NCBI GenBank assembly: GCA_018729555.1
Contig: JAHHQG010000026.1
Coordinates: 259,329 to 323,328 of the forward strand
DNA from: Clostridiales bacterium
GTDB lineage: Bacteria; Bacillota; Sulfobacillia; RBS10-35
Reading direction: 5' to 3'
Length of the DNA stretch: 64,000 bases
The notes under the pieces are model-generated. The model did not search any database. It saw nothing but the letters and a program-made list of their open reading frames with translations, and was not told the DNA's origin. This document shows, one piece after another, positions 8,841 through 64,000 of this stretch (within the stretch, counting starts at the first letter, position 1; each line of letters opens with the position of its first letter). Position numbers and translations under genes: made by a program.

Positions 8841-9951
8841 ATGCTGCAGGACACCTTTCGCGAGGATTGGAAAGAGCTGACGGCCCGCCTGGAATCCCTA
8901 AGGAGGTCTCTTTGACCCGGCGAGCCTGGAAGAGCAAATCCGGCGCTATGAGGAGGCCATGGCTCGGCCCGACTTCTGGGACGACGGCGACGAGGCCCAG
9001 AAGATCCTCCGCCACCTGAAGGTAGTCCGCAACCGGTATGAAACGCTTCAGTCCTTGGAGTCCCAGCGGGAGGAAATCGAAGCCCTCTTCGATCTCCTGG
9101 AGGAAGCCCCTGACGACGGAGAGCTCCAGGAGGAGCTGAAGGAAAGCCTCCCCGGGTTCCAAAAGCAGCTGGACGCCTTCGAAACGGAGCTCTTGCTCCA
9201 GGGCCCCTACGACGAACGGGATGCCCTCCTCTCCATCCACCCCGGGGCCGGCGGCACCGAAGCCCAGGACTGGGGAGCCATGCTCCTCCGCATGTACACC
9301 CGCTGGGCGGAGGAAAAAGGGTTCCAGGTGGAGGTCATCGACTACCAGGAGGGGGAAGAAGCCGGCATCAAGTCGGCCACCCTGGCCATCAAAGGGCCCT
9401 ATGCCTACGGCTACCTCAGGGGTGAACGGGGGGTCCACCGCCTGGTGCGCCATTCCCCCTTCGATGCCTCGGGCCGCCGCCACACTTCCTTCGCCGCCGT
9501 GGACGTCCTCCCGGTCCTCGATCCCGCCGACGAAGAGCTGAAGCCCGAGGATCTGGAGATCCAGTTCTTCCGGGCCAGCGGCCCCGGAGGTCAGCACGTC
9601 AACAAGACGGAGTCGGCGGTGCGGATCACCCATAAGCCCACGGGCATCACCGTGAGCTGCCAGTCGGAGCGCTCCCAGCATGCCAACCGGGAGCATGCCC
9701 TGACCCTTTTGCGGGCCAAGGTGGCCCAGCGGCGCATCGAAGAGCGGGAGAAGGAGCTGCAGGCGGAGCGGGGCCAGGTGGGGGAGATCGCCTGGGGCAA
9801 CCAGATCCGCTCCTACGTCTTCGAACCTTACACGCTGGTGAAGGACCACCGGACGGGGGTCAGCGTGGGGAATATCCGGGCCGTCATGGACGGCGACATC
9901 GACATCTTCATCATGGGCTTCCTGAGGCAAGGCCTTGTCGCCAAGAGCTGA
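8841..9951 (+). CDS. prfB: peptide chain release factor 2, requires programmed +1 frameshift at 8910-8916
   Basis: ATG 8841 opens a 24-codon frame ending at an in-frame TGA (8913-8915). Shifting +1 joins it to the 8959..9951 frame: DPASLEEQIRRYEEAMARPDFWDD, then the SPF motif (RHSPFD) and GGQ (SGPGGQHVNKTESAVRITH). Confidence 0.95.
8901..8916 (+). promoter_or_regulatory. RF2 autoregulatory +1 frameshift site
   Basis: AGGAGG (internal SD-like, 8901-8906), then TCT, then CTT TGA C. This is the canonical CUU UGA C slippery/stop context. Confidence 0.9.
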
Positions 9952-56827: not shown

Positions 56828-56877
56828 GAGAGGACGGCAAGGTGGCGGACATCCGCTGGAGGGCTCAGCCCTTTCTC

Positions 56878-57279
56878 ATGAATCCCTTGCGGAGCGCCGG
56901 AGTGGTGCTCCTTCTCGTTTTCAGCTGGTGGTTCGGCTACTATCTCATGGGCCAGGTGGGCCTTTTGGTGGCGGTGGTGGCCACCGTGAGCCCCCTGGCC
57001 CCTTACCTCTTCCCCAGCACCTATCACCTATCCCCCGAAGGGGTGGAAGTCCGGACCCTCTTTTCCTCCGGTGTTCGCCCCTGGGACCGGTTTGTGGGCT
57101 ACACCGTCTACCCCGATGGGGTTCTCCTGGCCTATCCCCGCCATAACCTTCGCCAGCGCATCCTGAAAGGGGTCTTCCTCTTTTTCGGCGAGGAAGATCC
57201 CCGCCCCATCCTGGCCTACATCGAAGAGCGCCTCTCGGGGAAGGGCTTTTTTGCCCCCGGGGCGCCCCGCCCTTCCTGA
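56878..57279 (+). CDS. hypothetical membrane protein (two N-terminal helices plus small soluble domain)
   Basis: MNPLRSAGVVLLLVFSWWFGYYLMGQVGLLVAVVATV, then about 90 soluble residues. GTG 56842 is an alternative start. Confidence 0.5.
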   Translation: MNPLRSAGVVLLLVFSWWFGYYLMGQVGLLVAVVATVSPLAPYLFPSTYHLSPEGVEVRTLFSSGVRPWDRFVGYTVYPDGVLLAYPRHNLRQRILKGVFLFFGEEDPRPILAYIEERLSGKGFFAPGAPRPS

Positions 57280-57406
57280 AGAACTAGCCTTTTTTCCCAA
57301 GAAGGATATTTCCAACGCAGGGCGAATATCGCAGTGCCAAGAGGACGTTTCTCCCAGGGTTGGTTCTATGGGGGGATCGTTCTCAAAAACAGGAAGGAGG
57401 TGACTT

Positions 57407-58228
57407 ATGAGCGTGTTCTTTTTGGCGGCCGACACGGCTCCCCTCTTCGGGATCTTTGCGCCGGGCCGGGGCGGGGCGTTTTTCGCGGTCCTCATCTTCG
57501 TCCTTTTCGTCTGGACCATGATCAACCGGGCCCGGGGCGGGACCCTGACGCGGGAGATCCACAAGCTGGCGGGGCTCGATGCCATCGAGGAGGCGGTAGG
57601 GCGGGCCACCGAGATGGGCCGGCCGGTCCACTACACCATGGGGCTTCCGGCCATCACCAGCCCCCAGACCATCGCGTCCTTCCCGGTGCTGGGCTATGTG
57701 GCCAAGATGTGCGCCCAGTACGACACCCGGCTCATCAACACGGTGAACGACGTGGTGGTGTACGCCGTGAACGAGGAGATCATCCGGCAGGCGTACCTGG
57801 AGGCGGGGCGGCCCGACGCCTTCAACCCCGATGACGTCCGCTTCATCACCGACTGGCAGTTCGCCTACGCCGCAGGGGTGCTGGAGATCTTGGCCTCGGA
57901 GAAGCCGGCGGCCCAGATCCTCTTCGGCGGCCCCTTCTTCGCCGAGTCCCTCCTCTTCATCGAGGCGGGAGCCCTGGCGGGGGCCATCCAGGTGGGGGGT
58001 ACGGCCTCCATGTCCCAGCTGCCTTTCTTTGTGGCGGGCTGCGACTACGCCCTCATCGGTGAGGAGATCTACGCCGCCAGCGCTTACATCTCCAAGGAGC
58101 CCGTCCTGGTGGGGACGGTGGTGGGGGAGGACTACTACAAGTTCCTCCTGGTGGCCACCATCATTGCCGGCACCCTGATCTACTCCATCGCCGGCCAGTC
58201 CCTCCTGGAGACCTGGCTCAAGATGTAA
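57407..58228 (+). CDS. uncharacterised bitopic membrane protein A (N- and C-terminal helices flanking about 200-aa domain)
   Basis: 273 aa. ATG follows AGGAAGGAGGTG. Hydrophobic helices at GGAFFAVLIFVLFVWTMI and FLLVATIIAGTLIYSIAG. No motif I can assign. Confidence 0.8.
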   Translation: MSVFFLAADTAPLFGIFAPGRGGAFFAVLIFVLFVWTMINRARGGTLTREIHKLAGLDAIEEAVGRATEMGRPVHYTMGLPAITSPQTIASFPVLGYVAKMCAQYDTRLINTVNDVVVYAVNEEIIRQAYLEAGRPDAFNPDDVRFITDWQFAYAAGVLEILASEKPAAQILFGGPFFAESLLFIEAGALAGAIQVGGTASMSQLPFFVAGCDYALIGEEIYAASAYISKEPVLVGTVVGEDYYKFLLVATIIAGTLIYSIAGQSLLETWLKM

Positions 58229-58255
58229 GGGCGGCGACGGGAAGGGAGGGAAAGG

Positions 58256-58879
58256 ATGCGCAAGGAAGTACCTTTGGCGCTGGTGACCCTGACGGGCCTC
58301 TTCGTCATCGTGGCCTACTACTTCAACTACTTCTACGAGCTCAAGTGGCTCGACATCGGCAACAAGTGGTACCAGGTGTTCGCGGCCATGTTCGTGTTCC
58401 TGGGTTTCATCAACCTGACCCAGATCCACGCCCGGAACATCGCCCGGCGCCGGGCCAAGTGGGTGTATAGCCTCATCCTCCTCATCGCCATGTACGGTTA
58501 CGCCCTCTTGACCCTCTGGCAGACGGTGGACGGTCCCCAGGCCGACTGGATCTACCAGAACATCATGGTGCCCACCGACGCGACCATCTTCGCGCTCCTG
58601 GCTTTCTTCATCACATCGGCGGCGTACCGGGCCTTCCGGGTCCGCACCCGCGAAGCCACCGTCCTCATGATCAGCGCCATCATCCTGATGCTGGGGACGG
58701 CCCCCATCGGCGATGTCATCATCCCCGGGTGGAAGACCTTCTCCCAGTGGATCCTGGATGTGCCCAGCGCGGCTGCTCAGCGGGGCATCCTCCTGGGGGC
58801 GTACCTCGGCGCCTTCGCCACCGCCTTGCGGATCCTCCTGGGGCTGGAACGGGCCCATCTTGGAGGGATCGAGAAATGA
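58256..58879 (+). CDS. uncharacterised polytopic membrane protein B
   Basis: 207 aa and about 5 to 6 hydrophobic helices. ATG follows GGGAGGGAAAGG. Confidence 0.8.
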   Translation: MRKEVPLALVTLTGLFVIVAYYFNYFYELKWLDIGNKWYQVFAAMFVFLGFINLTQIHARNIARRRAKWVYSLILLIAMYGYALLTLWQTVDGPQADWIYQNIMVPTDATIFALLAFFITSAAYRAFRVRTREATVLMISAIILMLGTAPIGDVIIPGWKTFSQWILDVPSAAAQRGILLGAYLGAFATALRILLGLERAHLGGIEK

Positions 58880-58907
58880 CGGCTAGGCGGAGAGGGGGTG
58901 CCGCAGC

Positions 58908-59732
58908 ATGAAGTGGGCCCTGGATATCGATCGCCGCTGGATCTGGCTCATCATCTTCATCATCGTGGGTTTCGTCATCATCCGCCCCTTGGGCCTGCCC
59001 ATCCCCATCGGTCCCGACGCCCAGAACTTCTACGACACCATCGACGCGTTGCCCGAGGGGTCCAACGTCCTCCTGGGAGCTGCCTACGAGGTGGGGACCG
59101 TGGGGGAGATCCAGCCCATGGTGAGGGCCTTTGCCTACCACGCGTTTAAAAAGAACCTGAAGATCTTCATCTTCGACGCGGCCTGGACCAACGGGCCCAA
59201 GCTGGCCGCCAGGGCGGTGGAAGAGGCGGCCAAGGCCCTCGGCAAGGAGTACGGGGTGGACTGGATCAACCTGGGGTATAAGCCCGGCGGATCCACTACC
59301 TACCAGCTCATGACCAGCAACCTTCTGGAGGCTGTCAAAGGCGTCGACCAGAACGGCCAGGCCCTCAGCCAGTTCCCCATCATGCAGGGCATCACCAAGG
59401 TGGATAGGAATACCTTTGCCGCCATCGTGGCCACCGACGTGGGGTCCCCCGGAGCCACCGATTATTACGCCTTCATCGGGGAGCCCACCGGGGTGCCTGT
59501 CTTGGGCATGGTCATCACCATGGAGGTGCCCGGCTTTAAGCCCTACGTGGCGGCGGGGCAAATCAAGGCCATGCTCCCCGGGTCCCGCGGGGCGGCCGAG
59601 TACGAGCTCCTGGTGGGGGAGCCCGGGCAGGCCATCAGCCAGCAGGACGGCCAGTCCCTGGCGGCCATCTACGTGACCCTGCTCATCATCCTGGCCAACG
59701 TGGCCTGGCTGACCACCCGGAACAAGCAGTGA
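58908..59732 (+). CDS. uncharacterised bitopic membrane protein C (same layout as A)
   Basis: 274 aa. N-terminal helix WIWLIIFIIVGFVII, C-terminal helix LAAIYVTLLIILANVAWL, and a central alpha/beta-looking domain. Confidence 0.8.
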   Translation: MKWALDIDRRWIWLIIFIIVGFVIIRPLGLPIPIGPDAQNFYDTIDALPEGSNVLLGAAYEVGTVGEIQPMVRAFAYHAFKKNLKIFIFDAAWTNGPKLAARAVEEAAKALGKEYGVDWINLGYKPGGSTTYQLMTSNLLEAVKGVDQNGQALSQFPIMQGITKVDRNTFAAIVATDVGSPGATDYYAFIGEPTGVPVLGMVITMEVPGFKPYVAAGQIKAMLPGSRGAAEYELLVGEPGQAISQQDGQSLAAIYVTLLIILANVAWLTTRNKQ

Positions 59733-59744
59733 GGAGGTGTTGAG

Positions 59745-60398
59745 ATGAGCGCAGAGCAGTGGGGCTTGATCGCCGGGGCTATCGCCACCATCGCTGTATG
59801 GACTTACCTGGTGGATAACCAGAACCCCATCTGGGAGTTCATCCAGCACCTCTACATCGGCCTGGCCTACGGGTGGACCTTCGGTCTGGTGTGGCACACC
59901 TACATCAAGCAGGTCTTCATCGGCGACGACTTCAGCCTGAGGGCGGGCCAGTGGTGGATGATCATCCCCGTCATCCTGGGGCTCCTCATCTACACCCGCT
60001 ACATCCCATCCATCTCGTGGATCGCCCGTTACCCCCTCTCCATCGCCCTGGGCTGGGGCGCCGGCTACGTCCTCACCTTCAGCGCCCCCGTCTTCATCGG
60101 CCAGGTGACTGACTCCTTCTATCAGCTGTGGGGGCTGGGCTCCACCAGCGAGACCCTCAACAACTGGCTCCTTCTCCTGGTGCTCCTGGGCACCCTCACC
60201 TACTTCTTCTTCACGGTCCGGCGGGATGCCAACGCCGTGATGAAGGGCGGGGTGTGGGTGGGCCGGTGGGCCATCATGGTCACCCTGGGGGCCATGTTCG
60301 GCAATACCGTCCTCTACCGCTACAACCTTTTCTACGCCCGCATGAAGTACATCCTGGTGGATGTGGTCCAGGGCCTCTTTGGAGGGGGCGCCGGCTGA
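59745..60398 (+). CDS. uncharacterised polytopic membrane protein D
   Basis: 217 aa and about 6 hydrophobic helices. ATG follows GAGGAGGTG. Confidence 0.8.
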   Translation: MSAEQWGLIAGAIATIAVWTYLVDNQNPIWEFIQHLYIGLAYGWTFGLVWHTYIKQVFIGDDFSLRAGQWWMIIPVILGLLIYTRYIPSISWIARYPLSIALGWGAGYVLTFSAPVFIGQVTDSFYQLWGLGSTSETLNNWLLLLVLLGTLTYFFFTVRRDANAVMKGGVWVGRWAIMVTLGAMFGNTVLYRYNLFYARMKYILVDVVQGLFGGGAG

Positions 60399-60428
60399 CC
60401 ATCGTCTGGGCTGGCGGCTATAGGGAAA

Positions 60429-60455
60429 GGGGGCCTGCCCGGGGGGCGGGCCCCC
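60429..60455 (+). terminator. GC-rich hairpin (possible attenuator/terminator) followed by AT-rich island
   Basis: GGGGGCCTGCCC-GGG-GGGCGGGCCCCC folds into a stem of about 12 bp. Only TT follows it, so it is not a classical terminator. 60461-60510 is strikingly AT-rich for this window. Confidence 0.35.
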
Positions 60456-60534
60456 TTGCCTATACCACCTATTATGTGCATATATGTATAGTTTAAGAAA
60501 GATTAAAGGCTCGCCAGGGAAGGAGTGTAGGCCC

Positions 60535-62439
60535 ATGGACGATTCCCGACGCCCCAAGACCATCCTGGCCACCGACGTGGGTAGCACCACCACCAAGGCC
60601 ATCCTCATCGAAGAAGTGGACGGCCAGTACCGGATGGTGGCCCGGGGGGAGATGCAGACCACCGTGGAAGCCCCCTGGGAAAACGTCATGATCGGTGTGC
60701 GCAAGGCCATCCGCCGCATCGAGGAGATGACGGGCCGCCGCTTCCTGACGGAGGACGGCCGCCTCCTCCGGCCCCGCCAGGGGGAGGACGGGGTGGATCT
60801 CTACGTCTCCACCTCCAGCGCCGGGGGCGGCCTGCAGATGATGGTGGCGGGCCTGGTGAGCACCATCAGCGCCTCCAGCGCCCACCGGGCAGCCCTGGGC
60901 GCCGGCGCCGTGGTGCTGGACGTCATCGCCGTCGATGACGGCCGCTCCACGTCGGAGCAGATTGCCCGCATCACCCAGCTGCGCCCCGATATCATCCTTC
61001 TCTCGGGAGGGGTGGACGGGGGCTCCGTCCAGTACCTGGCGGCCCTGGCGGAGACGGTGCTCCAGGCCAACCCCAGGCCTCGCTTTGGGTCCACCTATCG
61101 CCTGCCGGTGGTGTACGCCGGCAACGTGGATGCCCAGGACCTGGTGGTGTCCATCCTGGAACCTCACCTGGACGTCCACCTGGTGCCCAACCTCAGGCCC
61201 CGCCATGATCTGGAGAACCTGGGGCCGGCCCGGGAGAAGATCCACGACCTCTTCATGAACCACGTCATGGCCCAGGCTCCCGGCTACGGCGAGCTCATGG
61301 AGTGGGTCGATGCCACCATCATGCCCACTCCGGGCGCCGTGGGGAACATCATCCAGGTGGTGGCGAGGGAAGAGAAGGTCAACATCGTCGGCGTGGACAT
61401 CGGCGGCGCCACCACCGACGTCTTCTCCGATTTTGGAGGCACCTTCACCCGGACCGTCAGCGCCAATCTGGGTATGAGCTACAGCATCACCAATGTCTAT
61501 GAAGAAGCCGGTTTTGAGAATGTCCGCCGCTGGGTTCCCTTCCCCATCGATGAAGCCCAGTTCGCCGACTGGATCAGCAACAAGATGGTCCGGCCGACGG
61601 CCATCCCCCAGACGGTGGAGCACCTCATCCTGGAGCAGGCCTTGGCCCGCGAGGCGTTGCGCCTCTCCTTCGAGCACCACAAGCGCCTGGCCAAGAAGGT
61701 GGAAGTGGAGGAAAAGGGCCTGGGCCGGAGCTCCCTCGGCGAGGTGAAGAAGGCCGAAGGCGTCGACATCATCAAGATGAACCAGTTGGATATGCTCCTG
61801 GGGTCCGGCGGGGTCCTTTCCCACGCTCCCCGCCGACAGCAAGCCGCCCTCATGCTCCTGGACGCCTTCCAGCCTGAAGGCATCACCCAGCTGGCGGTGG
61901 ACAGCGTCTTCATGACGCCCCACCTGGGGGTCCTGGCGTCGGTCCACCCCGACATCGCCCATGAGGTGTTCCGGAGGGACTGCCTGGTGCCCCTGGGGAC
62001 GGCCATCTCCGTGGCCGGAAAAGGGAAGGAAGGCAAACCCGTCTGCCAGGTGAAAGTGAACCTTCCCCAGGGCACCGAGACTTTCTGGCTTCATTACGGG
62101 GAGCTGAAGCGCCTTCCCCTGGGGATGGGGGAAGAGGCGGAGGTGGAGCTCATCCCCGAGCGCGGGATGGACGTGGGGGCAGGCCCCGGAAAGCCCCGTC
62201 AGGCCCGGGTGAAGGGCGGCGTGGTGGGCCTCATCTTCGACGGCCGCGGGCGGCCCATCGAGCTTCCGGCCCAGGACGGCAAGCGCCGGGCGAAGCTCCT
62301 TGAGTGGCTGCGAGCTCTGGACGTCTACCCGGAGGAAGCCCTCATGGAGCTGCAGCCGGAAGGGACGGCTTTGGCGGAACCCGAGGAAGGGAGGAAGAGC
62401 CTTGTCTTCCGTCTATTTGGACGCCGAGCATCCAGTTGA
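60535..62439 (+). CDS. GlmL/MutL ('glutamate mutase L') / EutA-like ASKHA-fold ATPase
   Basis: 634 aa. Contains ILATDVGSTTTKAILIE (phosphate-1), ILLSGGVDGGSVQ and VGVDIGGATTDVFS (phosphate-2/adenosine). ATG 60535 follows GGAAGGAG. The ORF opens at 60484, inside the AT-rich island. Confidence 0.85.
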   Translation: MDDSRRPKTILATDVGSTTTKAILIEEVDGQYRMVARGEMQTTVEAPWENVMIGVRKAIRRIEEMTGRRFLTEDGRLLRPRQGEDGVDLYVSTSSAGGGLQMMVAGLVSTISASSAHRAALGAGAVVLDVIAVDDGRSTSEQIARITQLRPDIILLSGGVDGGSVQYLAALAETVLQANPRPRFGSTYRLPVVYAGNVDAQDLVVSILEPHLDVHLVPNLRPRHDLENLGPAREKIHDLFMNHVMAQAPGYGELMEWVDATIMPTPGAVGNIIQVVAREEKVNIVGVDIGGATTDVFSDFGGTFTRTVSANLGMSYSITNVYEEAGFENVRRWVPFPIDEAQFADWISNKMVRPTAIPQTVEHLILEQALAREALRLSFEHHKRLAKKVEVEEKGLGRSSLGEVKKAEGVDIIKMNQLDMLLGSGGVLSHAPRRQQAALMLLDAFQPEGITQLAVDSVFMTPHLGVLASVHPDIAHEVFRRDCLVPLGTAISVAGKGKEGKPVCQVKVNLPQGTETFWLHYGELKRLPLGMGEEAEVELIPERGMDVGAGPGKPRQARVKGGVVGLIFDGRGRPIELPAQDGKRRAKLLEWLRALDVYPEEALMELQPEGTALAEPEEGRKSLVFRLFGRRASS

Positions 62440-63751
62440 GATCTGGTCCTTTGTCCGCCGGCTCCCCCTTCCCGGAGAGATCCTGGTGGCTCCGGGGGAT
62501 GAGGTGGAGCCCGAGCAGACGGTGGCCCGCATTTCCCTTCGGCCGGGCATCCCCTGGGTGATCCCCCTCGCCCGCCTCATCGGGGTCAGGGACGACCAGC
62601 TCTCCCAGTGCTGCCTGGTGAAGGTGGGCGATCGGGTGAAGACGAAGCAGGTCATCGCCCGCGGCCTCTCCTCGGGCCTCTACGGGCAAAAGGAATACGA
62701 ATCCCCCATCGACGGCGTGGTGGAGGATATCTCCGACCGGTCGGGGAGGATCGTCATCCGGGAGGAGTTCGGCCGGGAGGAGCCGCCGGTAAAGGTGGAT
62801 GTGGCCTTCGAGCTGGGGGTCCGGCCCCGGGACCTCCCCCAGCATATGCTCTTCAAGGTGGGCCAGGAGGTGAAAAAGGGATCCATCCTGGCCAAGAAAG
62901 GGGAGCAGCAGGCGTTTTTCACCCGCTCCGTGGTGGCTCCGGTCTCTGGGGTGGTGGCGGAGATCAACACCCAGACGGGCCATGTGACCATCGCCCGCCC
63001 CTTCAAGGAAGTGGTGGTGAAGGCCTACGTGCGGGGTCGGGTGAAAGACGTCCAGGAACAGCGGGCGGTGGTGGTGGAGACGGCGGCGGTGCGCCTGACG
63101 GGCATCTTCGGACTGGGCGGGGAGCGCCACGGCCGCCTCAAGGTGCTGGTGTCGTCACCTTACGAGGATCTCACCCCCGACCTCATCGACGAGAGCTGCC
63201 GGGGTCAGATCATCGTGGGAGGGCGCTTGGCCACCGACGAAGCCCTGATGAAAGCCCTGGAGGTGGGGGTGGCGGGGGTCATCACGGGGACGGCCCACTA
63301 CCTTACGTTGGTGAAAGCCCTGGGGGTGAAGCTGGGGGTGGGTATCACCGGATCGGAAGACGTGGACATGACCGTCATCCTCATGGAGGGCTTCGGCTCC
63401 CTCCCCATGCGGGAGTCGGCCTTCCGCACCCTGCGCTCCCTGGACGGGCGGGAGGCCTCCATCAACGGGGCCACCCAGATCCGTGCAGGCGCCATCCGGC
63501 CCGAGATCGTGGTTCCCATGCCTTGGGAGCTGGCCCAGGCGGACAAGCGCCGCTTCGTGGACGAAGACCTTACCATCGGCCAGAAGGTCCGGATCATCAC
63601 CGAACCCTATTTCGGCTTGGTGGGGGTGGTGGCGGCCCTTCCCCGGGAGGACGCCATCATCGAGACGGAAGCCAAAGCGGCGGTGGCCCAGGTGGATGTG
63701 GGGGGCCGCCTCCTGACGGTGCCCCGCAAGAATCTGGAGCCTTTCCACTGA
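62402..63751 (+). CDS. uncharacterised protein F: repeated barrel-sandwich (lipoyl/hybrid-like) motifs, central alpha/beta region, KOW-like C-terminus
   Basis: Three G(D/Q)xVxxxQ motifs (APGDEVEPEQTVARI, KVGDRVKTKQVIARG, KVGQEVKKGSILAKKG). Two SP(I/V)xGVV motifs (SPIDGVVEDI, APVSGVVAEI). C-terminal GQKVRIITEPYFGLVGVV resembles a KOW motif. TTG 62402 follows GGGAGGAAGAG. The start is uncertain. Confidence 0.75.
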   Translation: MSSVYLDAEHPVEIWSFVRRLPLPGEILVAPGDEVEPEQTVARISLRPGIPWVIPLARLIGVRDDQLSQCCLVKVGDRVKTKQVIARGLSSGLYGQKEYESPIDGVVEDISDRSGRIVIREEFGREEPPVKVDVAFELGVRPRDLPQHMLFKVGQEVKKGSILAKKGEQQAFFTRSVVAPVSGVVAEINTQTGHVTIARPFKEVVVKAYVRGRVKDVQEQRAVVVETAAVRLTGIFGLGGERHGRLKVLVSSPYEDLTPDLIDESCRGQIIVGGRLATDEALMKALEVGVAGVITGTAHYLTLVKALGVKLGVGITGSEDVDMTVILMEGFGSLPMRESAFRTLRSLDGREASINGATQIRAGAIRPEIVVPMPWELAQADKRRFVDEDLTIGQKVRIITEPYFGLVGVVAALPREDAIIETEAKAAVAQVDVGGRLLTVPRKNLEPFH

Positions 63752-63772
63752 CGGTGGAAGGAGGTCTTGACG

Positions 63773-64000
63773 ATGCCGGGCATCGGACCTTCTTCGTGGC
63801 AGCCGTCCCTGCCCCCCCAAGATGACGACGAGCTGACGCCGGAGCGGCGGGACGAGCTCATCAACTGGCTGCTGGAGAAGATCGACCGCTGGAAGCTGTA
63901 TACCCCCGCCATCCTCCTGGTGGAGGGCATGCGGCCCCTCCACTATATCGGAGCCCAGATGGCCTTTTTCGGGGCTCCTTATCTCAGCATCCTGGGGGCG
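63773..64000 (+). CDS. uncharacterised membrane protein G (5' part; runs off the window)
   Basis: ATG 63773 follows GGAAGGAGG. The frame is open to nt 64000: MPGIGPSSWQPSLPPQDDDELTPERRDELINWLLEKIDRWKLYTPAILLVEGMRPLHYIGAQMAFFGAPYLSILG. It is absent from the ORF track because no stop lies inside the window. Confidence 0.6.
   Translation, partial: MPGIGPSSWQPSLPPQDDDELTPERRDELINWLLEKIDRWKLYTPAILLVEGMRPLHYIGAQMAFFGAPYLSILGA

Follow-up and report, generated by a model that had tools for sequence, protein, structure and literature searches.

What is an actin-fold ATPase of the glutamate mutase L type doing in an operon of membrane proteins? The question is raised by the end of a 64,000-nucleotide (nt) stretch of contig JAHHQG010000026.1 from a Clostridiales bacterium (the window, in what follows), where seven open reading frames (ORFs), called A to G in an earlier sequence-only reading, follow one another. 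That reading regarded the cluster as uncharacterised, assigned its fifth protein, E, to the group of GlmL/MutL and EutA/DdrA proteins, remarked that no B12 enzyme lies beside it, and proposed an undescribed membrane-associated machine. Our analysis reveals that the cluster is real and strongly conserved, occurring in many bacterial phyla and in some archaea, that it is unrelated to vitamin-B12 enzymes, and that it is made of two separable modules, one for E with its partner F and the other for the membrane proteins A to D.

All seven ORFs were found on the + strand, and each is preceded 5-12 nt upstream by a purine-rich Shine-Dalgarno sequence, for instance GGAAGGAGGTGA for A (57407-58228), GTGAGGAGGTG for D (59745-60398) and GGTGGAAGGAGGT for G, so that the co-directional ORFs with strong Shine-Dalgarno sites described before were verified in full. 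The intergenic gaps described along with them hold for the other neighbours, not for E (60535-62439) and F (62402-63751), which overlap by 38 nt. Likewise, "at least seven genes" proved a sound count of the ORFs themselves, to which an eighth co-directional member of the conserved families, here called pre (56842-57279), is to be added in front of A. G, which we rename H, starts at 63773 and is cut by the window end at 64000, which leaves its N-terminal 76 residues.

Two modules conserved across phyla

The closest of the relatives examined, L001, has an E protein 77% identical to that of the window and the same upstream genes, namely sufB, acpS, nnr, alr and a glutamine amidotransferase gene. 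There the order is pre, A-B-C-D, E, F, two H paralogues, a second MutL-type gene E2 (604 aa), a second F gene F2 (390 aa), uracil-DNA glycosylase, tsaE and tsaB. Three further relatives (L002-L004, 67% identical) show pre-E-F-H-E2-F2, with A-D not nearby. The copies of E, F and H are clear paralogues, and because the closest relatives carry E2 and F2 downstream, a second E/F pair probably lies beyond nt 64000 of the window, which would then display half of the arrangement typical of Bacillota.

For a wider view, one genome per GTDB species was scanned with an alignment of F, which gave at least 599 pattern matches; 573 of those listed encode a relative of F, and the 80 examined correspond to 79 distinct loci. 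The six-frame ORFs of the loci were searched with the window proteins, and 81 loci were summarised by taxon. E adjoins F in 58 of the 81, and A-B-C-D occur in the same cluster in 26, always in that order. These 26 loci span Bacillota, Armatimonadota, Elusimicrobiota, Planctomycetota, Latescibacterota, Fidelibacterota, Fibrobacterota, Thermoproteota and Bathyarchaeia. Beyond the Bacillota, loci usually read pre-H-E-F-A-B-C-D and carry one E/F pair; within that phylum A-D stand before E, and 25 of 30 loci have the E/F pair in duplicate. A locus of Bathyarchaeia (L062), with two E-F pairs and two A-B-C(-D) sets lying side by side in opposite orientations, is the only case of E/F duplication seen outside Bacillota among the loci examined.

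The two groups of genes are also found in other arrangements or entirely apart. A-D and E-F are divergent in two loci (L012 and L030), and F is directly followed by A-D with E remote in two more, L063 and L070 (no E within 10 kb upstream in the latter). Stand-alone A-B-C-D operons, lacking E, F and H for 10 kb around, occur in L084 and L085, from a 6.6-Mb genome and a complete WOR-3 genome, while many loci in Bacillota and Armatimonadota have E-F or F alone with A-D not nearby. The cluster thus consists of two modules, pre-H-E-F and A-B-C-D, which occur together or apart. Conservation of the neighbourhood across phyla, which the sequence-only reading had put forward, was borne out by the 81 loci and reaches into the archaea; of its single seven-gene operon the co-directional order stands, and the unity gives way to two modules. 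Clustering of 850 unassigned neighbour ORFs gave no other family common to several phyla, only lineage-specific housekeeping genes.

A few neighbours of the modules deserve mention in their own right. Seven loci in Fimbriimonadales and other Armatimonadota have F without E or A-D within reach, and there F lies beside genes that look, by eye, like those of a response regulator of the OmpR type and a histidine kinase resembling PhoR, which both recur with F in 9-10 loci. In the WOR-3 genome (CP070705.1; L085:13282-21185), A-B-C-D are followed by a PatA_N (PATAN) protein, four small proteins, ExbB-ExbD-ExbD-TonB and a TonB-dependent receptor. Eleven Bacillota loci, mostly of Fermentithermobacillaceae, encode after F2 a protein of 325-343 aa with a CC..C..C motif (for example L002:17069-18100); it matches DUF483 weakly (17.5 bits) and could be an accessory protein of the system specific to this lineage.

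The junction of the modules in the window is itself distinct. The D-E spacer (60399-60534, 136 nt) is predicted to fold directly 3' of D into a GC-rich hairpin of 14 bp (60427-60457, + strand), after which comes the only AT-rich stretch of the region (60460-60509). The hairpin is found at the same position in the two closest relatives of the window here, L001 (9904-10000) and L005 (5617-5822). No T-run follows it and the consensus scan did not call a terminator; between the genes in general, the scan found no intrinsic terminators beyond chance. Judged from the sequence, the hairpin and the AT-rich stretch may serve as an inter-module attenuator or stabiliser and an internal promoter for E, and the spacer is consistent with a separate tuning of the two modules.

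Proteins of the two modules

E is a protein of 634 aa that matches the Pfam model MutL (PF13941), which belongs to the actin-ATPase clan, over all 450 model positions (1-450) with an E-value of 1.6e-120 and 403 bits. The motifs DVGSTTTK (phosphate 1, nt 60574-60597), GGVDGG and DIGGATTDV (phosphate 2, nt 61396-61422), which had been read as those of GlmL/MutL, were indeed found, and 32 bacterial and archaeal homologues all keep their core residues. In the same alignment D14-K21, D288-D295 and the adenosine motif GxGG (G423-G426) are invariant or nearly so and keep their order. Identity averages 59% per column and exceeds 50% between members from bacteria and archaea. By these motifs E is a member of the ASKHA superfamily, predicted to be an ATPase with intact catalytic motifs.

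What kind of GlmL-like protein E is can be told from its scores and its length. The window protein is 100% identical to a public one (P0001) named 'glutamate mutase L' by NCBI; however, it falls below each of the NCBIfam cut-offs, with 220.7 against 475 bits for GlmL (NF040745), 212.9 against 600 for Or-4 (NF040744) and 164.1 against 204.05 for TIGR01319, that is, less than half of the equivalog cut-offs of GlmL and Or-4. EutA (PF06277) and DdrA (PF08841) are not listed by Pfam at E-values up to 1 for either E or E2, so that of the group proposed before, the MutL part remains and the EutA/DdrA part does not. With GlmL/MutL and Or-4 (PF13941/TIGR01319) E shares the 450-residue ASKHA core with its phosphate and adenosine motifs. 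It differs from them in its length, in a membrane-type tail in the E1 copies, and in a conserved C-terminal extension of about 150 residues (nt 61984-62436), which has no Pfam match and contains invariant Gly, Asp and Arg residues (GGxVGxIxDxRGRP). From its sequence we thus regard E as a distinct long-form subfamily of the GlmL family, of non-canonical type.

The genomic context differs as well. No B12 enzyme was seen among the by-eye ORF calls in about 5 kb upstream in the window, and the Pfam tables show no B12-dependent mutase, lyase or B12-binding domain within 10 kb on each side of L001-L004. Neither does any B12 enzyme appear among the recurrent neighbours in about 80 related loci. The adenosylcobalamin enzyme that adjoins GlmL, EutA and DdrA thus has no counterpart next to E, as the sequence-only reading had said of the 6.6 kb of the cluster; in the loci examined E never adjoins glmS/glmE or oraS/oraE and is paired with F, usually with H and pre.

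Beyond MutL, the secondary Pfam similarity of E is limited to Hydantoinase_A and Hydant_A_N. The window protein reaches 20.3 bits (cut-off 22.9) with Hydantoinase_A at positions 69-103 of 291, and E2 of L001 reaches 27.7 bits over positions 65-111. The alpha subunits of hydantoinase, 5-oxoprolinase, and acetone and acetophenone carboxylase, which are ASKHA enzymes that hydrolyse ATP without polymerising and work with an obligate partner, are therefore the only other families with detectable similarity to E, and the sequence places E in a hydantoinase/GlmL branch. The likeness is confined to about 40 residues at phosphate 2, short of what assignment to HyuA takes; no HyuB-like gene occurs in L001-L004 or among the recurrent neighbours, and the architecture of F is unrelated. 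As for the filament-forming relatives, MreB-like_C reaches 14.9 bits (cut-off 27.8), and the FtsA and PilM families have no Pfam match to E. A profile search of PDB sequences found no relative of E. Glutamate mutase has been placed among the enzyme-type, non-polymerising members in a review of the actin superfamily (PMC5597319).

The last residues of E (62392-62436) read RKSLVFRLFGRRASS in the window and form a basic and aromatic tail, a putative amphipathic membrane-targeting sequence, with the family consensus (K/R)GG-L-F-x-R-L-F-K-R. The tail is present in 107 of 119 close homologues and in 24 of 26 E1-type locus proteins, compared with 10 of 54 E proteins that are of E2 type or from outside Bacillota. 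Some H proteins end in similar tails (WWPFGR, GLFGLFKR). In Escherichia coli the membrane-targeting tail of MinD is KGFLKRLFGG. The tail of E, GGLFxRLFKR, appears to resemble this helix in its hydrophobic spacing (i, i+1, i+4, i+5), which is a lead; the likeness is limited to the tail, and MinD is a P-loop ATPase, unlike E. From its composition and this resemblance, the tail may bind the membrane.

F, the neighbour of E, is a protein of 449 aa that starts with TTG at 62402, in agreement with the 449-aa NCBI protein (P0121), to which it is 100% identical. The lipoyl-like hybrid motifs and KOW-like tail noticed in it before could both be substantiated. Pfam finds in it an RnfC_N barrel-sandwich hybrid (BSH) at nt 62840-62980 (40.8 bits, cut-off 25.6) and a sub-threshold KOW domain at the C-terminus (nt 63569-63748), and Foldseek confirms the latter on the structure model. 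The model, made by AlphaFold2 (AF2) from 56 sequences of 55-70% identity (pLDDT 86, pTM 0.64), comprises beta domains with tandem BSH (residues 13-248), a small alpha/beta domain (250-380) and the KOW domain (390-449). Most of the invariant polar residues sit in the central alpha/beta domain, where the motifs GIFGxGxE, GITGxED, TEGFG and NGxTQIRAGxxRPE are invariant; the invariant polar residues of F include E241, T316, E319, E329, N355, T358, Q359, R361, R366 and E368.

Foldseek against PDB gave domain-level matches only, among them Thermotoga maritima NusG (2xhc, inserted domain II, E-value 1e-6), the sandwich-barrel-hybrid repeats of RNA polymerase Si3, and Spt5 KOW for the KOW domain (TMt about 0.75, root-mean-square deviation 1.5 Å); whole-chain TM-scores were about 0.1, and the search gave no full-length PDB neighbour. 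A PA-domain match for the central domain (TMq 0.17) was too weak to use. When alignments of A, C, E and F were searched against all PDB sequences, the sole match was again the KOW domain of F. With RnfC and NqrA, F shares one beta domain of the RnfC_N/NQRA_N type; in those proteins the N-terminal BSH precedes a Rossmann-like nucleotide or flavin domain and SLBB, and in RnfC there is Fe-S as well, whereas F is without Complex1_51K, SLBB or Fe-S domains and so falls outside that family, and neither NqrA nor RnfC is among the Foldseek top 50. B and D are similar in size to RnfA/E and NqrD/E, being polytopic with about 200 aa, and are not homologous to each other. We considered F as a homologue of NqrA/RnfC with B and D as NqrD/E-like subunits and rejected it, since only the BSH matches (the full-length score is 33.3 against a cut-off of 245.95) and B is without cysteine.

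E and F are closely coupled. Their genes overlap by 29 nt in L001, compared with the 38 nt in the window, and two independent in-frame E-F fusions (P0466, 995 aa; P0475, 976 aa), which come from a representative library and from two very different sequence backgrounds, join a full MutL domain to an F sequence through a short linker. The fusions, the conserved overlap and the parallel duplication into E/E2 and F/F2 argue for an obligate complex of E and F, as far as sequence can tell. The two copies of F differ in that a second BSH domain, some 70 aa long, is inserted in F and missing from F2. The F family numbers 1,248 clusters at 50% identity (E-value up to 1e-10).

In the other module, A, B, C and D all have clear transmembrane (TM) segments by hydropathy, as does pre. 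A belongs to DUF6754 (PF20539; E-value 5e-89, 298 bits against a gathering threshold of 27), a family of at least 7,903 homologous clusters at 90% identity. Its AF2 model (pLDDT 86.6, pTM 0.82) shows, between a TM helix and a long helix at the C-terminus, a parallel alpha/beta domain of six strands. This is a generic Rossmann-like sandwich, and Foldseek gave no informative PDB neighbour for the model (best E-value 3.6e-3, TM-score at most 0.34). In the homologues from diderm phyla outside Bacillota a signal peptide and an Fn3-type extension precede this part, so the conserved domain is cytoplasmic; A thus has its N-terminus outside, then a TM helix, a cytoplasmic six-stranded Rossmann-like domain and a C-terminal TM helix.

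B (58256-58879) has about six TM segments and the conserved motifs SAAYRAFRxRTxEAT and LGxERxYLGG, as hydropathy and 24 aligned orthologues indicate, and D, also polytopic, has YFFFT and FGAAFGxTVMxR (23 orthologues); a consistent Pfam family emerged neither in the 24 members of B nor in the 23 of D. C (58908-59732) is bitopic, with a TM segment at each end, and in 26 orthologues it shows IDRR ahead of TM1 and, past TM2, a tail rich in R/K. Because of these basic residues its domain of about 220 aa lies outside the cell, with the N-terminus and the basic C-terminal tail inside. C has no Pfam match in 26 members and no PDB sequence relative. The idea that A and C, and likewise B and D, are duplicated pairs was dropped, hhalign probabilities being below 1%.

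Of the small proteins, pre (145 aa) has two N-terminal TM helices and a soluble domain, which looks PH-like by eye. Its start, GTG at 56842, was chosen by alignment with the L001 orthologue (phmmer E-value 4e-45), which has two TM segments by hydropathy. The family adjoins the cluster in 31 related loci, and in many loci pre opens the ATPase-side module. H is related to its L001 counterpart with a phmmer E-value of 2.5e-25 and belongs to a family of about 110-140 aa, characterised in 24 aligned members by an ELTPERRDE helix and a conserved core PAIxxLExxKPLxxIGxQ. This core is only moderately hydrophobic and no segment exceeds the hydropathy threshold for TM helices, so the earlier description of the protein as a membrane protein is unproven. 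Neither pre nor H has a Pfam family, and B, C, D and H match no Pfam or NCBIfam family. The profiles thus place A as DUF6754 and put none of B, C, D, H and pre in a known transporter or pathway; by eye, the earlier reading had matched A-D, F and G to no characterised family.

A full-text literature search for DUF6754, TIGR01319, PF13941 and GlmL-like proteins returned nothing on this system. Public annotations of the cluster proteins are generic or misleading ('hypothetical protein', 'DUF6754 domain-containing', 'fibronectin type III domain-containing', 'glutamate mutase L'), and the cluster may well be called uncharacterised, as it was before. Since only E has characterised relatives, and fails both their thresholds and their defining genomic context, the assembly as read from its sequences corresponds to no described system, the coupling of its modules being suggested by synteny.

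Possible function and its alternatives

The reading that we prefer, with a probability of about 0.4, is that a membrane-tethered E-F ATPase acts on a complex of A-D. The module of pre, H, E and F would be an ATP-hydrolysing engine in which E and F form an obligate pair, and the tail of E and/or the small proteins H and pre would keep this pair on the cytoplasmic side of the membrane. A-D would form an integral-membrane complex with the Rossmann-like domain of A inside and the alpha/beta domain of C, of about 220 aa, outside, where A would also carry its Fn3 domain in diderm phyla. Nucleotide-driven domain closure in E would be passed through F to the A-D complex and drive a process across or in the membrane, such as the transport or assembly of a solute or an envelope component. 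In Bacillota the engine would be duplicated as E1F1 and E2F2, with the tail on E1 only.

We prefer this reading because E-F and A-D are linked in many phyla and in several gene orders, and because E and F are coupled, the ATPase motifs are invariant, E1 has its tail and its neighbours their TM segments, no B12 enzyme is present, and no terminator beyond chance separates the genes. The docking of E-F on A-D, the membrane binding of the tail, the coupling of energy and any substrate are what we infer from this arrangement. Several points weigh against it. Contact between E-F and A-D is deduced from synteny, and the membrane affinity of the tail from composition and an apparent likeness to MinD. 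The modules are separable, as the stand-alone A-D operons (L084, L085) and the many E-F or F-only loci without A-D show. The models of A and F gave no functional neighbour in Foldseek and hence point to no substrate. In addition, the characterised proteins nearest to E work as soluble enzymes or in accessory roles and are not membrane motors. A bolder form of the reading, which we hold only tentatively, sees in the cluster an ancient ATP-driven membrane machine in which a tethered, non-polymerising, long-form GlmL-like E, together with F, powers A-D to move or assemble an envelope component or a solute; shared by more than ten bacterial phyla and by Bathyarchaeia and Thermoproteota, it would be the first ASKHA motor of a membrane complex for transport or assembly. 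The undescribed membrane-associated machine proposed at the outset is therefore sustained as far as novelty and the link to the membrane (the tail of E and the TM partners) are concerned, and its coupling of E-F with A-D is drawn from synteny.

Other explanations account for part of the same evidence. E-F might be a soluble ATP-dependent enzyme of the hydantoinase, oxoprolinase or carboxylase type and A-D the transporter of its substrate or product, the link being metabolic. This would fit the Hydantoinase_A and Hydant_A_N similarity of E, the enzyme-like conservation (59% mean column identity in E, many invariant polar residues in F) and the separability of the modules, which is common for pairs of enzyme and transporter; however, neither a HyuB-type partner nor another catalytic family was found, F is built of protein-interaction modules (BSH, KOW) and gave no enzyme fold in Foldseek, a transporter family is matched by none of the 23-24 members searched for each of B and D, and a soluble enzyme would need neither the membrane-type tail of E1 nor pre and H as membrane proteins. 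We consider it unlikely, though it deserves serious thought. If instead A-D and E-F were functionally unrelated neighbours, co-located by chance or by shared regulation, the stand-alone A-D operons, the many E-F loci without A-D within 10 kb, and the hairpin and AT-rich spacer between D and E, in the window as in its closest relatives, would be readily understood. But adjacency recurs in at least eight phylum-level lineages, two of them archaeal, and in differing gene orders, which is hard to explain without selection for linkage and renders the idea improbable.

To a similar degree we doubt that E is a scaffold or filament like PilM, FtsA or MreB that organises a machine of envelope assembly, division or shape. 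The actin fold expected of E from its sequence, an amphipathic C-terminus like those of FtsA and MinD, bitopic and polytopic partners as with PilNO or MreCD, and the position of the cluster among housekeeping genes all speak for it. On the other side, Pfam gives no significant match to FtsA, PilM or MreB, and a patchy cross-domain distribution with duplication in one phylum is unlike a core component of the divisome or elongasome. FtsA, which polymerises, belongs to a different ASKHA branch and has no sequence relationship to E beyond the tail; with PilM-PilN-PilO and MreB-MreC-MreD the cluster has in common that genes for bitopic and polytopic membrane proteins accompany that of a cytoplasmic protein of actin fold, no component being homologous and the other genes of type IV pili or the elongasome being absent here. 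The analogy with PilM-PilNOC and FtsA drawn in the sequence-only reading therefore reduces to actin fold and membrane partners, and has against it the listing of the GlmL/hydantoinase branch as non-polymerising (PMC5597319). Finally, membership in PF13941 and the NCBI name 'glutamate mutase L' would suit a genuine reactivase or chaperone of a B12 enzyme, like GlmL, EutA or DdrA, with its target encoded elsewhere. We give this very little credence, as E lies far below the GlmL and Or-4 equivalog cut-offs, carries a 150-aa extension lacking in the canonical proteins of about 460 aa, and has F as its invariable partner, with no mutase, lyase or B12-binding gene in the roughly 80 loci examined.

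Should the preferred reading hold and the two modules work together, they would represent a new way of energising a membrane process; the membrane motors known to us run on P-loop, ABC, AAA+ or rotary ATPases, none of them an actin-fold protein of the hydantoinase/GlmL branch. A mis-annotation that is widespread would be corrected too, since in Bacillota, candidate phyla and archaea the proteins named 'glutamate mutase L' or 'methylaspartate mutase', thousands in number, would be unrelated to B12 chemistry, and DUF6754, with its thousands of clusters, and several families without a Pfam model would gain their first functional context. None of the usual model organisms is known to carry the system. 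It may be experimentally tractable, because public records of the loci bear the names of cultured taxa, namely Symbiobacterium thermophilum, Capsulimonas, Schlesneria and Fimbriimonadaceae.

Surrounding sequence

By eye, positions 1-57000 of the window hold housekeeping genes, including secA, prfB, uvrA, uvrC, trpS, glmM, serS, sufB, acpS, alr and a class-I glutamine amidotransferase gene, and this partly by-eye reading showed no second copy of any cluster gene there. No Rfam match was found in the window. The PADLOC models of known anti-phage defence systems gave 0 matches for the eight cluster proteins, and the idea of a defence system was dropped. Two long ORFs on the - strand, at 58719-60719 (666 aa) and 57383-58858 (491 aa), overlap A-E. 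The searches made gave no homologues for them, and they are artefacts of the kind common at a G+C content of 64%, which should be left unannotated. In prfB (release factor 2, 8842-9951), the frame-0 ORF starts with ATG at 8842 and stops at an in-frame TGA, within the programmed +1 frameshift site AGGAGG TCT CTT TGA C at 8901-8916, a known phenomenon of this gene.

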